DNA from: a virus
Length of the DNA: 17,361 nt
Virus genome (UHGV): UHGV-2175977
Direction: 5' to 3' (one strand)
The notes beneath the pieces are model-generated. The model made no database searches. It saw only the letters and a list, made by a program, of their open reading frames with translations, and had not been told where the DNA came from. The position numbers and the translations under genes are program-made. Numbering within the stretch: position 1 is the first letter of the stretch; the number at the start of each line of letters is the position of its first letter. Shown here piece by piece: positions 8,745 through 11,097 of the stretch.

Positions 8745-9198
8745 GCAGCAAATCCGGCAGGTCTGCCGCCAGTGCATGGACCGCTGCCGGGCGGGTGAAA
8801 CATGGCCTCCTGACCTGGCTGAGTTTGTGGCACTGATTCCGGAAAGCGGGGCCAATCCATTCGGTCTGACGGTGGGTGCTGTGATGGAGGAGTACCGACG
8901 CTGGCGCAATGAGTCCTGGCGATACGACGGAAGCGATAAATACCCGTGGTCTCAGCCTGTGCTGTATCACATATGCCTCGAGATGCGTTCAAAGGGGATT
9001 GAACGCCAGATGACCGAAGGGGAGTTAAAACGGTTTGCAGAACGGCAACTGACGAAATGGTCAAAGCATGTTGGTATGGGCCTCAGCGTTCCGCCAGTCC
9101 GGCGACAACTGGCGGCCCCCAAACGCCCGTCGGGACCAACGCCAATTGAGTTGCTGAAACAGGAATATGAACGCCGGAAAGCGGCTGGTTTTGTATGA
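8533..9198 (+). CDS. Putative lambda-P-like replication protein (helicase loader); 5' 212 nt overlap previous ORF out of frame
   Basis: 221-aa ORF with AGGGGGTGA RBS 6 nt before ATG 8533; segments MTEQQIRQV..., WPPDLAEFVALI, KYPWSQP, GELKRFAERQL align by eye to recalled lambda P; no Walker A, so not DnaC-like. Alternative start ATG 8737. Confidence 0.45.
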   Translation: MQQHQVAPHHGQFRKFGQHVSSGNVKTDLSATETAWKLWELMGEVYSDRWTRKNGAAPSKLWIAQIGAMTEQQIRQVCRQCMDRCRAGETWPPDLAEFVALIPESGANPFGLTVGAVMEEYRRWRNESWRYDGSDKYPWSQPVLYHICLEMRSKGIERQMTEGELKRFAERQLTKWSKHVGMGLSVPPVRRQLAAPKRPSGPTPIELLKQEYERRKAAGFV

Positions 9199-9650
9199 AT
9201 TGTGAAGGAGATTTTTCAGGAGGACTTGTGAAAAAAGTATTTACACAGGAAGAGCGGGAAAAAATTAAGAGGCAGGTTGTCGAACTCGTGCGACAGAGCG
9301 GGCGCGAGACGTTACGACAACTGGAAGCGAAAACAGGTGCGACAAGATATCTGCTGAGCGTTCTTGCCAGAGAGCTGGTTGCCAGTGGTGATGTATACAA
9401 TTCAGGCTACGGATTATTCCCGTCTGAGCAGGCGCGTAAAGACTGGCAAAACGCCCGCAAAAAACTATCAAGGGAAAAGGTGAAAAAACCGGTTGTGGTT
9501 GATCCTGACCTTATCTGGTCATTACCAGACGGAGAAATACGCCGCTACGACAGGCGTCAGAACATAATCTGTTGCGAGTGCAGGAAGAGCGAAGTTATGC
9601 AGCGCGTGCTGGCGTTTTATCAGGGAAATTATCAGGGGGGCTGTGAGTAA
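9195..9650 (+). CDS. Hypothetical protein (winged-helix-like N-terminus)
   Basis: 151-aa ORF; ATG 9195 overlaps upstream stop (ATGA); in-frame GTG at 9228 preceded by AGGAGG is an alternative start. Confidence 0.5.
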   Translation: MNCEGDFSGGLVKKVFTQEEREKIKRQVVELVRQSGRETLRQLEAKTGATRYLLSVLARELVASGDVYNSGYGLFPSEQARKDWQNARKKLSREKVKKPVVVDPDLIWSLPDGEIRRYDRRQNIICCECRKSEVMQRVLAFYQGNYQGGCE

Positions 9651-9703
9651 AATTAGCTATCAGGCTTCAATTATCGCTGGCATTCGCATCAAAGGAGAGG
9701 AGC

Positions 9704-10060
9704 ATGGAAATAAAACCAGAAGATGAGTTAAGTAATATTGTTTTATTTCCGGTAAAAGAGGATGACCCACGTAATCAGGTTAATTTTCTTTATGAGCCAT
9801 CGGAAAGACCATATTGTCATCACGCCTCTGTCCGGGTTGACGAAAAAGAGCGTCAGGTCCGCTGTAAAATCTGCGGTGCAGTTGTGGAGCCATTTGACTG
9901 GATGCTCTCTGTGGCGAAAAGAGAAACCAGACTGGCAGATGATGTAAGGCTCTTGCGCCAGGAGGAACGGGAAAGGCGAAAAAATATAGAAAAGCTAATT
10001 CAGATTGAGCGTAACGCGAAAGCGCGGATACGCAGGGTGACAAAATCCAGAACTGAATAA
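9704..10060 (+). CDS. Hypothetical zinc-ribbon protein with basic coiled-coil tail
   Basis: 118-aa ORF; AAAGGAGAGGAG RBS; C-H-H ... C-x2-C (PYCHHASV...CKICG) then Arg/Glu-rich helix. Confidence 0.55.
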   Translation: MEIKPEDELSNIVLFPVKEDDPRNQVNFLYEPSERPYCHHASVRVDEKERQVRCKICGAVVEPFDWMLSVAKRETRLADDVRLLRQEERERRKNIEKLIQIERNAKARIRRVTKSRTE

Positions 10061-10153
10061 TTAAATTTAGCACTGTTAAAAATTTAATCCTTAACCGGAG
10101 GGATTTCTGCACCTTCAGAACAGCAGGAGGCCACCCGAAAGGGCGGTAGTGAA

Positions 10154-10351
10154 ATGCGAAAGTTCAAAATAATTATTGAAACTGGAATAGCTGGTGGAGA
10201 TTTTGAGGATGTATTCGAAGTGGACGATGACGCAACACCTGATGAAATTCATGACGAAGCAAAAGAAATTTTCTTTAACTACTGCAATTACTCATATCAC
10301 GAAATAAAAGACGAAGAGGAAGAACAAAATGGCTGGTTTTGGTTCAACTAA
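10154..10351 (+). CDS. Small highly acidic hypothetical protein
   Basis: 65-aa ORF, Asp/Glu-rich (FEDVFEVDDDATPDEIHDEAKE...KDEEEEQ); SD-like AGGAGG (10125-10130) and GAAA-loop hairpin just upstream. Confidence 0.45.
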   Translation: MRKFKIIIETGIAGGDFEDVFEVDDDATPDEIHDEAKEIFFNYCNYSYHEIKDEEEEQNGWFWFN

Positions 10352-10505
10352 ATACAACGTCAGTTTTGAAGAATGGCATGAACTGTTAATGGATTATGCA
10401 GAGTTACGTGGTGGAAGTGCTGCTGATGCTGAAGCCTGGCGTGATGACTACGAAGCAGGAAAAACTCCGGTCGAAGCATATTGTGATGAGTGGGGCGATG
10501 AATGA
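10329..10505 (+). CDS. Unlisted 58-aa acidic small ORF, translationally coupled on both sides
   Basis: Hand-translated: MAGFGSTKYNVSFEEWHELLMDYAELRGGSAADAEAWRDDYEAGKTPVEAYCDEWGDE; ATG 10329 lies inside the upstream gene's 3' end; its TGA (10503-10505) overlaps the next ATG (10502). Confidence 0.35.
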   Translation: MAGFGSTKYNVSFEEWHELLMDYAELRGGSAADAEAWRDDYEAGKTPVEAYCDEWGDE

Positions 10506-11017
10506 GCGAGATTAATTATCAGGAAGGGCATGAAACGGCAGGGCAGGCAAAACCAGTTGCATGGCGATATCGCTACGTGAAAAAAGGCGTTACGGACTTT
10601 CAGGAGAAGATGTGGGTTGGTGACTGGAAATATGTACCGACAAAAGAGGATTGCAACGACAGGCCGAGCTATGAGATTCAGGCCTTATTCACTGCCCCGT
10701 CAGTCCCGGTGACATCAGAAGGACTGGTTAAAGCCGTGCGCTTTTATGAACAGGTAAAGCGTGAGAATCCACCAGTCGAAACAGGAGCATGGAAAGATGC
10801 TGTTGATTGGGTGCTCAAAGAGGCCTGCTGTGCTGTCATTCTGAGTAAAGCCGACAATCCACTGGCATCCAGTAATCAGGTTGGCGAATTAACAATGTGG
10901 GTTAAACGACTGGTCAGTCAACTGAAAAAAGCTCAGCCGGACTGCAAATTACCGGAGAAGGCGATGGATTACCTGAAACGAAATGGACTGATAAGCGCGG
11001 AGGATATTTTACGATGA
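10502..11017 (+). CDS. Hypothetical protein
   Basis: 171-aa ORF in the nin-equivalent region; start coupled to upstream small ORF. Confidence 0.55.
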   Translation: MSEINYQEGHETAGQAKPVAWRYRYVKKGVTDFQEKMWVGDWKYVPTKEDCNDRPSYEIQALFTAPSVPVTSEGLVKAVRFYEQVKRENPPVETGAWKDAVDWVLKEACCAVILSKADNPLASSNQVGELTMWVKRLVSQLKKAQPDCKLPEKAMDYLKRNGLISAEDILR

Positions 11018-11097
11018 CCTGGCCTGAAGCATTCACAACGGCAGGAATTGCAATGGCGGAGGCGCTGGTGATGTATTCTATTTGCGGTTGGGGATAA
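11014..11097 (+). CDS. Unlisted 27-aa hydrophobic peptide ORF
   Basis: ATGA overlap with upstream stop; MTWPEAFTTAGIAMAEALVMYSICGWG; directly followed by the terminator. Confidence 0.25.
   Translation: MTWPEAFTTAGIAMAEALVMYSICGWG

Follow-up and report, generated by a model that had tools for sequence, protein, structure and literature searches.

What kind of genetic unit is the run of small genes that separates the replication module from a terminator in the virus genome UHGV-2175977? The window, meaning the whole 17,361-nt stretch analysed here, is a Rac/lambda-like prophage adjoining ompW, with a 100% identical match in E. coli strain 135. A preliminary description had reported, at 9195-11097, six translationally coupled ORFs of 151, 118, 65, 58, 171 and 27 aa, none of them recognisable, in a position equivalent to that of the lambda nin region. 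All six ORFs are present in the sequence at those coordinates and lengths. They are preceded by replication genes (encoding a DUF1376/DnaT-domain protein and then a P-like helicase loader) and followed by a strong hairpin and by DUF968, RusA and Q. This order, together with distant ORF2 homologues in the nin regions of Yersinia and Serratia, agrees with both the proposed boundaries and the nin-equivalent placement.

We conclude that the six ORFs are real genes under selection, and that they make up a shuffled accessory stretch of the ordinary kind in an E. coli prophage resembling lambda. Our preferred reading, to which we give a probability of about 0.8, is that the block is a non-essential accessory part of the rightward early operon of this Rac/lambda-like prophage and consists of six independently exchangeable genes. 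Its transcription would start at the early promoter that precedes the cro-like gene, and expression of the block would thus follow induction or infection and not occur in the lysogen; this timing, like every biochemical role considered below, is what we infer. The features of the block are as follows.

9228..9650, + strand: ORF1, DUF977/Ren-like protein of 140 aa (Pfam DUF977, phrog_142, C-terminal motif)
9704..10060, + strand: ORF2, protein of 118 aa with an acidic N-terminal tail carrying ELSNVVxFP, a CxH...CxxC zinc ribbon and a long basic helix
10154..10351, + strand: ORF3, acidic DUF7167 protein of 65 aa, pI 4.1 (PF23768, phrog_1997)
10329..10505, + strand: ORF4, acidic protein of 58 aa, pI 4.1, starting inside the end of ORF3 (phrog_519)
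10502..11017, + strand: ORF5, mosaic protein of 171 aa (phrog_660, E 1.7e-73)
11014..11097, + strand: ORF6, predicted single-pass membrane peptide of 27 aa, whose start overlaps the end of ORF5 by ATGA; absent from the PGAP annotation
11105..11146, unstranded: hairpin of a two-way intrinsic terminator (stem-loop at 11108-11141), flanked by an A run on the left and a U-rich run on the right

The suggested coupling of all six genes holds for part of the block. ORF3 and ORF4 overlap by 23 nt, and ORF4/ORF5 and ORF5/ORF6 overlap by ATGA. ORF1 and ORF2 are instead separated by 53 nt and ORF2 and ORF3 by 93 nt, without any overlap, and ORF1 and ORF2 have Shine-Dalgarno sites of their own; nor is the P-like gene coupled to ORF1 (see below). 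The RNA structure of the 93-nt spacer is not unusual (z -0.76), no promoter-like site was found on the + strand between 8500 and 11100, and an Rfam search of 9195-11097 returned no match.

Within related loci, in-frame dN/dS amounts to 0.08 for ORF2, 0.08 for ORF3, 0.12 for ORF4, 0.30 for ORF5 and 0.25 for ORF6, against values of 0.6-4.6 in the two off frames of the same ORFs. ORFs 2-6 therefore evolve as coding sequences under purifying selection and are more than chance ORFs. The small ORFs, which might have proved unconserved in relatives, are conserved there.

That no protein of the block could be recognised was too strong a statement. ORF1 belongs to DUF977/phrog_142 and ORF3 to DUF7167, ORFs 2, 4 and 5 fall into PHROGs 1621, 519 and 660, and ORF5 contains modules of the Ead/Ea22 type. 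It is nevertheless true that no characterised Pfam family was found for ORFs 2-6; no block protein matched NCBIfam, and PDB sequence searches with ORFs 1-5 returned nothing meaningful. None of the six proteins matches the Pfam model of a lambda Nin protein (NinB to NinI) at E <= 1. The Rac region of K-12 contains no homologue of any of the six ORFs.

ORF1 follows immediately upon the P-like loader gene, which ends at 9198, just as ren directly follows P in the corresponding operon of lambda. It is matched by Pfam DUF977 (E 3.9e-30, 105 bits for a cut-off of 22) and by phrog_142, the 'Ren-like exclusion protein' family, to which both ORF1 (E 2.7e-45) and lambda Ren (E 1.6e-41) belong. The two proteins share the motif N(I/L)xxxECRxSxxMxRVLAxY near the C-terminus. 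Direct BLASTP similarity is confined to the 20 C-terminal residues, and lambda Ren does not match Pfam DUF977 at E <= 0.1. Ren is also shorter, with 96 aa against the 140 aa of ORF1, which has an extra segment of ~45 residues. We regard ORF1 as a Ren homologue and as the probable Ren equivalent of this prophage, a winged-helix-type protein encoded directly after the loader. K-12 YdaW, considered as a counterpart with its published ydaW hit as a retron-Sen2 toxin blocker, has no BLASTP similarity to ORF1 and was rejected.

The true start of ORF1 is the GTG at 9228, preceded by its own AGGAGG site, rather than the ATG at 9195. In relatives, whose upstream sequences are of three different kinds, the codon at 9228 is GTG or ATG and follows a conserved GGAGG; similarity to other phages sets in at ~9213, the Pfam and PHROG matches start only at residue 12-14 of the 151-aa form, and PGAP places the start at 9228 as well. 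The 151-aa form is probably not used, and since translation begins at 9228, the ATGA at 9195-9198 does not represent coupling of the P-like gene to ORF1.

The preliminary portrayal of ORF2 as a zinc-ribbon protein with a basic coiled-coil tail is confirmed by its alignment and by an AF2 model (pLDDT 74; ribbon at 38-61, helix at 63-117). Across the family in Enterobacterales, C38, H40, C54 and C57 are invariant and NIEKLIQIERNAKARIRR is near-invariant. The family comprises 1679 cluster representatives at 50% identity and has no Pfam entry; a Pfam scan of 74 distant relatives gave only sub-threshold zinc-ribbon and coiled-coil noise, and a PDB search with the ORF2 profile gave nothing meaningful. 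Resemblance to the TFIIB-type ribbon is weak and below threshold (Pfam E 1.6e-4; Foldseek E 0.36, the search with the ORF2 model yielding nothing significant besides). The small ribbon, likened here to the N-terminal ribbon of TFIIB, is joined to a long helix in ORF2, and the TraR/DksA-like phage protein Orf73 is, like ORF2, encoded among early accessory genes. However, the metal site of ORF2 is CxH...CxxC and not C4, and the ribbon precedes the helix, the reverse of the order in TraR. In Yersinia prophages the ORF2 homologue lies after NinG-NinH, two genes before a Q-type antiterminator, and in Serratia prophages it lies after RusA or NinG and before the late region. We suggest that ORF2 is a conserved nin-region protein that probably dimerises through its long helix and, by way of its invariant basic helix, probably makes contact with nucleic acid or with a conserved host machine.

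ORF3 matches PF23768 (DUF7167) with E 2.8e-14 and 53.4 bits, for a gathering cut-off of 24.4. Most of its relatives (cluster members) end at 60 aa, and the 65-aa end occurs in 1 of 35 alleles. ORF4 corresponds to the C-terminal half of phrog_519 (E 1.8e-22), is intact in 31/31 alleles and belongs to a narrow family in which the homologue search revealed no added domains. ORF3 and ORF4 occur together in 136/139 and 129/131 loci (~98%), although these and the other co-occurrence figures are biased, as the related loci were gathered via ORF2 and ORF5. The two genes form a near-obligate acidic pair; most plausibly, their products would bind and block a protein of the host or of a rival phage.

ORF5 is assembled from parts: it opens with MSEINYQ, a leader of the Ea22 type, after which residues ~15-70 (beta strands) form module B, residues 71-112 module C and residues 113-171 module D. 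In two proteins, P0290 and P0301, which show 77-81% overall identity to ORF5, a PF13935 Ead/Ea22 domain is followed by ORF5 residues 15-112, that is, modules B and C. The leader and these two modules are thus common to ORF5 and the Ead/Ea22 family (PF13935, IPR025153), which, with the exo-xis (ea) region of lambda and Stx phages, is among the nearest parallels to the block (PMC10834534, PMC7093339). In the published account of Ea22 (PMC10834534), a shared N-terminal part is combined, mosaic-fashion, with C-terminal domains that are unrelated to one another. This picture fits ORF5, and homology breakpoints are found within ORF5 at ~10770-10830. ORF5 differs from the Ead/Ea22 proteins in that it has no Pfam match at E <= 1 and lacks the central coiled-coil Ead_Ea22 domain; it therefore probably does not adopt the tetramer architecture. 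By BLASTP, lambda Ea22 aligns only with residues 1-23 and ArgO145 gp13 only with residues 1-16. The AF2 model of ORF5 is poor (pLDDT 60) and gave nothing significant in Foldseek. Low PDB E-values to designed TIM-barrel repeats reflect four weak matches to repeated stretches, no single one of which is significant, and were set aside. We take ORF5 to be a free-standing form of those variable C-terminal modules by which Ead/Ea22 proteins would bind their partners. A pro-lysogenic effect has been demonstrated for Ea22. The genes of the block lie in the rightward operon and not between exo and xis.

The last gene, ORF6, had been described as a 27-aa hydrophobic peptide, and this description stands: a short polar N-terminus (MTWPE) is followed by one predicted hydrophobic helix and a C-terminal R/W motif. 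The frame is kept in 29/31 alleles of one sample and 25/26 of another, always with 27 codons. ORF6 occurs in 90 phage records and in 1631 of 5426 complete E. coli genomes (~30%); 933W and BP-4795 carry it too. Our genome-wide species scan found it only in Escherichia and Shigella, apart from small contigs, 369-1780 nt long, that are labelled Segatella, Acinetobacter and Xanthomonas and that we take to be contaminants. Its usual neighbours are hok/sok or parDE; it precedes xis-int in BP-4795 and hokW in 933W, and it also follows unrelated genes, among them those for a DUF551 protein and hypothetical proteins. In every context seen, its start overlaps the stop codon of the preceding gene. A 90%-identity cluster that united the peptide with 121-aa DUF551 proteins is an artefact of partial or fused calls, given that the DUF551 proteins do not contain the peptide. 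A literature search, which took in the Sakai study of small genes by ribosome profiling with its supplementary data, revealed no occurrence of the peptide sequence. Over the best 19-mer, Kyte-Doolittle hydropathy averages 2.1 in the consensus; the window allele, owing to V10A, V16E and V20M, reaches 1.46, which lies below the usual threshold. With V16E, R25G and this low hydropathy, the copy in the window may be weakened.

It could be argued that ORF6 is not a gene at all, and that these 84 bases are kept as DNA or RNA, for example as an upstream control region of hok/sok or a recombination linker, with an incidental reading frame. In most related loci the mok/hok gene indeed starts ~150 nt downstream, PGAP left ORF6 uncalled in all five annotated records inspected, a PHROG search found no family, and the excess of variation at third positions is modest (20 variable sites versus 13 and 12). 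However, ORF6 is equally conserved where no hok follows, as before ParE/ParD, before DUF4222-xis-int and in phage-plasmids. Homology breaks at its start and stop: in one locus (L120) it begins at the ATG, and for at least six different downstream sequences it ends exactly at the stop codon. Even at 59-67% amino-acid identity the length stays at exactly 27 codons and hydrophobic residues are exchanged for hydrophobic ones, and the in-frame dN/dS contrasts with 1.0-1.9 off frame. Moreover, the start is preceded at 6-12 nt by GGAG or AAGG in each of four unrelated upstream genes, whose stop codons overlap it, and Rfam recognises nothing in the region. We consequently consider a non-coding origin of this conservation unlikely.

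As a gene, ORF6 invites comparison with the type I toxins (Hok, TisB, DinQ) and other small membrane peptides of phages and prophages, with which it would share its shortness and one predicted hydrophobic helix. ORF6 shows no sequence similarity to Hok and lacks an own promoter, antisense RNA and fold-back mRNA. An own, antisense-controlled transcript of type I is contradicted by the overlap with the preceding stop codon, by the absence of a promoter-like site on the + strand and by the lack of an Rfam match. Unlike that of type I toxins, its translation would depend on coupling to the preceding early gene, with ribosomes re-initiating on the membrane peptide where the ea-type gene that happens to precede it has its stop codon. 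A broader proposal is tentative, and we find it somewhat doubtful: among the lambdoid and Stx phages of Escherichia/Shigella, ORF6 might found a family, so far undescribed, of inner-membrane peptides of 27 residues. These would be made only during lytic growth, when ribosomes re-initiate behind the last ea-type gene, and would act on the membrane (e.g. on its potential, lysis timing or superinfection exclusion) or with hok/sok or parDE, which almost always lie beside them; separately, ORF2 might define a large non-Pfam zinc-ribbon/basic-helix family that is conserved just upstream of Q.

The hairpin that closes the block has a 12-bp stem, with energies of -23.4 and -23.3 kcal/mol and z-scores of -4.9 and -5.6 on the two strands; the stem is followed by UUUUUU on the minus strand and by UUUGAUUU on the plus strand. 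In relatives a compensatory change (GCTCCC/GGGAGC versus GATCCC/GGGATC) is seen. The hairpin is present only in loci with ParE/ParD and belongs to that insert, not to the six-gene chain. The lambda nin region also contains a terminator that has to be read through for Q, but here the terminator is part of an inserted, oppositely oriented ParE/ParD module.

Are the genes of the block then parts of one machine? Throughout 162 loci, gene order is kept while single members are present or absent, and homology breakpoints cluster at the gene borders (9210-9229, 9630-9670, 10040-10150, 11010 and 11090). Were ORFs 2-6 to encode a single dedicated system of proteins that work together, for instance in anti-defence or exclusion, the fixed order, the overlaps from ORF3 to ORF6, the near-constant pairing of ORF3 with ORF4, the placement of ORF4 upstream of ORF5 in 85/85 cases and the joint travel of the set into the int-proximal region of Stx phage ArgO145 would be readily understood. 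Yet ORF2 is missing from 25 of 131 ORF3 loci, ORF5 from 49 of 139 ORF4 loci and ORF6 from 47 of 88 ORF5 loci; ORF6 is found behind unrelated genes, ORF2 stands alone between NinH and Q in Yersinia, and none of the six proteins matches a PADLOC defence-protein model at E <= 1. A single system is accordingly improbable. Decaying cargo of a defective prophage, devoid of present function, might account for the charged residue in the hydrophobic core of the window ORF6 allele, the atypical five-residue extension of ORF3 and the drop in GC content to 0.36-0.49 over ORFs 2-4, but is very improbable in view of the low dN/dS of all tested ORFs, the nearly universal integrity of alleles and the occurrence of the same genes in isolated, plaque-forming or inducible phages.

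Exchangeable accessory genes, our preferred reading, have one of their closest known parallels in the lambda nin region itself (ren and ninB-ninI, between P and Q), which occupies the same place in the operon, before RusA and Q, and is likewise composed of dispensable, short and tightly packed genes. A second parallel is the ea-type region of ArgO145, where ORF2, ORF3, ORF4, ORF6 and ParE/ParD occur among Ead/Ea22-like genes; the location there is int-proximal, whereas in the window these ORFs belong to the rightward operon. Parts of the block are found in 3653 of the 5426 complete E. coli genomes, and carriers of ORF6 include classic Shiga-toxin phages.

The overall picture is one of ordinary lambdoid mosaicism, with ORF6 as its modest novelty, and leaves the current understanding of lambdoid phages unchanged. 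RefSeq annotation systematically misses this conserved 27-codon gene, and toxin-antitoxin modules have repeatedly settled at the site that follows it. The leftward (ea-type, int-proximal) and the rightward (nin) accessory regions exchange the same genes, so that findings on the exo-xis region of Stx phages are relevant to genes of the nin region, and vice versa.

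The 2.3 kb that hold the six small genes (ORF1-ORF6) match the chromosome of E. coli strain 135 at 100% identity, as they do about ten other isolates; parts of this region are matched in 3653 of the 5426 complete E. coli genomes. RefSeq annotates an identical record as a lambdoid prophage whose integration site adjoins ompW. Its genes run, from the 5' side, integrase, excisionase, RecE, Kil, Rha-family regulator, repressor and cro-like gene, then a YdaT-family protein, a DUF1376/DnaT-domain replication protein, 'replication protein P' and the six-gene block; 3' of the block follow ParE/ParD on the opposite strand and then DUF968, RusA, antiterminator Q and the lysis genes. 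With replication genes on one side and RusA and Q on the other, the block therefore occupies the position of lambda ren and the nin genes, in agreement with the nin-equivalent placement in the preliminary description. GC content is ~0.58 in the replication genes versus 0.36-0.49 across ORFs 2-4. We read the block, with a probability of about 0.8, as an accessory stretch of the rightward early operon made up of six independently exchangeable genes; our confidence in each specific role proposed below is low.

9228-9650 (+), ORF1
9704-10060 (+), ORF2
10154-10351 (+), ORF3
10329-10505 (+), ORF4
10502-11017 (+), ORF5
11014-11097 (+), ORF6
11098-11870, insert region
11222-11521 (-), ParE
11527-11784 (-), ParD

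Several features outside the block were also recorded. For the P-like gene (8533-9198), the longest ORF encodes 221 aa from 8533 and shares 212 nt with the preceding DUF1376/DnaT-domain gene; the start chosen by PGAP, at 8737 (153 aa), leaves an overlap of 8 nt with the stop of that gene. The Pfam P match starts at residue 60 of the 221-aa form, slightly upstream of 8737, and so does not discriminate between the two. A single unbroken ORF of 817 aa (2126-4579, -) is split by RefSeq into two same-frame CDSs, '3'-5' exonuclease' and 'RecE family exodeoxyribonuclease'. Two tRNA genes, 15370-15442 (+) and 15447-15520 (+), labelled Ile and Arg by RefSeq, sit 3' of Q and of a 237-aa protein without a Pfam match; Stx phages carry tRNAs at the equivalent position, ahead of the late genes. 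Rfam matches to C4 antisense RNA (73.8 bits; 5575-5662, -) and isrK Hfq-binding RNA (67.2 bits; 5687-5763, -) fall within the 5' part of the Rha/Ash-family regulator gene (4966-5814, -), pointing to an antirepressor module of the P1/P7 type, under antisense control, in this Rac-like prophage.

All six ORFs of the preliminary description are present in the sequence at the positions given there. They were compared with 160 related loci from viral contigs, collected via ORF5 and ORF2, and with two annotated loci; pairwise Nei-Gojobori dN/dS was calculated in the annotated frame and in the two others, leaving out ORF1 because of indels in its relatives. In-frame ratios were 0.08 for ORF2 and ORF3, 0.12 for ORF4, 0.30 for ORF5 and 0.25 for ORF6, against 0.6-4.6 in the two off frames. 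These low values, together with the score of ORF1 on Pfam DUF977 (105 bits), rule out chance ORFs, and all six are therefore real genes under selection. Translational coupling, originally proposed for the whole chain, holds for the last three junctions, where ORF3/ORF4 overlap by 23 nt and ORF4/ORF5 and ORF5/ORF6 share ATGA, and not for ORF1/ORF2 and ORF2/ORF3, where gaps of 53 and 93 nt intervene. The + strand shows no promoter-like site from 8500 to 11100, consistent with co-transcription of the block with the replication genes; the block would then be expressed only after induction or infection.

The first gene starts at GTG 9228, not at ATG 9195 as initially assigned. Profile matches begin at residue 12-14 of the 151-aa form, similarity to other phages sets in at ~9213, and PGAP likewise chooses 9228. 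In relatives the codon at this position is ATG in many cases and GTG in others, always 4-5 nt past GGAGG, behind three unrelated upstream sequences. The ATGA at 9195-9198 thus merely holds the stop of P. Both ORF1 (E 2.7e-45) and lambda Ren (E 1.6e-41) match phrog_142 ('Ren-like exclusion protein'), share the C-terminal motif NxxxxECRxSxxMxRVLAxY, and are preceded by P. As lambda Ren did not reach a match to DUF977, it is the PHROG profile and the motif that link the two proteins; a Ren-type role for ORF1 appears possible. K-12 YdaW, at first taken for its counterpart, is unrelated.

Homologues of ORF2 (44-72% identity) occur in Klebsiella, Kluyvera, Salmonella, Yokenella, Erwinia, Serratia, Pluralibacter and Yersinia. 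Invariant among them are C38, H40, C54 and C57, as well as F15-P16 within the N-terminal ELSNVVxFP; the most striking conserved stretch is the near-invariant helix segment LRxEExxRRxNIEKLIQIERNAKARIRR. An AlphaFold2 model (pLDDT 74) consists of a disordered acidic N-terminus, a small ribbon (38-61) and a single long helix (63-117), the tail having a pI of 11.1; its sole Foldseek match in the PDB was weak (TFIIB ribbon, E 0.36). Profile searching across 1.84 billion cluster representatives yielded 1679 relatives at E <= 0.001, and 74 distant relatives gave no Pfam family above threshold, all belonging to the function-unknown PHROGs 1621, 8538 and 4865. In Yersinia the gene order is NinG-NinH-[ORF2]-small ORF-Q; in Serratia the homologue lies immediately 3' of RusA or NinG and is followed by two unassigned ORFs and the lysis genes. 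ORF2 is therefore a genuine, widespread nin-region gene, absent from lambda. Its product may be a dimer with nucleic acid or a host machine as its binding partner.

ORF3 (DUF7167) and ORF4, which matches the C-terminal half of phrog_519, are both strongly acidic (pI 4.1) and co-occur in 136/139 and 129/131 loci, counts that are biased by the collection of these loci via ORF2 and ORF5. Homologues of ORF4 are limited to a few genera of enterobacteria, and the family carries no extra domains. ORF3 has 65 aa here and 60 aa in cluster members and in Stx phage ArgO145, with the earlier stop found in 34/35 related alleles; loss of this stop extends the overlap with ORF4 to 23 nt (10329-10351), compared with 8 nt in ArgO145. 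The two proteins might act together to inhibit a host or competitor protein.

Relatives of ORF5 (n=1616) form a patchwork of segments. Residues 1-14 are a leader also present on Ead/Ea22 proteins; residues 15-112 recur after the PF13935 Ead/Ea22 coiled-coil domain in two related proteins (P0290, P0301) and follow different, unrelated N-terminal segments in others; residues 113-171 are missing in some relatives or joined to other N-terminal parts. Intragenic breakpoints at ~10770-10830 agree with this patchwork, which in turn agrees with the description of Ea22 variants as a common N-terminal part with unrelated C-terminal domains (PMC10834534). The coiled-coil domain itself is not present in ORF5. 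An AlphaFold2 model of ORF5, of low quality (pLDDT 60), produced no structural match. ORF5 could represent a free Ea22-type partner-binding domain.

The most informative result concerns ORF6. Its 84-nt frame is intact in 29/31 distinct alleles of one sample and 25/26 of another, always with 27 codons. Homology across relatives stops exactly at its stop codon, before at least six different downstream contexts, and at one locus with a different upstream gene it starts at the ORF6 ATG; breakpoints at 11010 and 11090 confirm that ORF6 is a separate module. Divergent copies in 933W (MTWPEAFANVGTVMAVVLVVYSICRWR) and BP-4795 (MNWPEAFTAVGVAIAVAFILYSLFRWG) keep the length and remain hydrophobic; their start codons overlap the stop of an unrelated upstream gene (ATGA or TGATG) and are preceded by GGAG or AAGG. 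ORF6 may encode a membrane peptide produced by re-initiation. Copies are present in 90 phage records; of the 5426 complete E. coli genomes, 1631 carry the gene, at up to 7 places each, phage-plasmids included. Among 185,579 species genomes it is restricted to Escherichia and Shigella, apart from three tiny stray contigs (369-1780 nt, in assemblies of Segatella copri, Acinetobacter idrijaensis and Xanthomonas pisi) whose near-identical segments are most likely E. coli phage contamination. E. coli plasmids of ~90-105 kb with phage-like genes carry ORF6, ead/Ea22-like and DUF551 genes (163 plasmid places; for example pF719-4, 92.6 kb, ORF6 at 2501-2584), and such phage-plasmids therefore share the ea-type gene pool. 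PGAP annotation of ORF6 is absent from all five annotated records inspected, a few GenBank submissions call it, and no PHROG family was found for it. The allele in the window is unusual (V10A, V16E, V20M, R25G), and this copy may be weakened, given a hydropathy of 1.46 versus 2.1 for the consensus.

Downstream of ORF6, the hairpin at 11108-11141 (-23 kcal/mol on either strand, z ~-5) has U runs on both sides, bearing out the bidirectional terminator of the preliminary description. It is present only where ParE/ParD follows, with a compensatory double change in relatives, and is therefore part of that inserted module. The insert, ParE/ParD plus this two-way terminator, separates ORF6 from the next rightward gene and is oriented against it. 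The 3' neighbour of ORF6 is most often a mok/hok-sok locus and otherwise ParE/ParD, which a minority of related loci have, DUF4222-xis-int or other genes, so that toxin-antitoxin modules have landed repeatedly at this junction.

Among related loci the order Ren-ORF2-ORF3-ORF4-ORF5-ORF6 is constant while individual members are gained and lost, each of the six being independently dispensable; in ArgO145, the int-proximal region holds ORF2, ORF3, ORF4, ORF6 and ParE/ParD, surrounded by Ead/Ea22-like genes. Lambdoid phages show this textbook pattern in their exchangeable early accessory genes. The original observation is real, once the ORF1 start and the extent of coupling are corrected, and its interpretation is right in part; the statement that none of the genes was recognisable goes too far. 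For its genome type the block is unremarkable, and five of the six genes already figure in catalogues as function-unknown families. The novelty is modest and consists of a conserved, widely distributed 27-codon gene missed by RefSeq annotation, and of the recognition of ORF2 as a member of a very large family outside Pfam.
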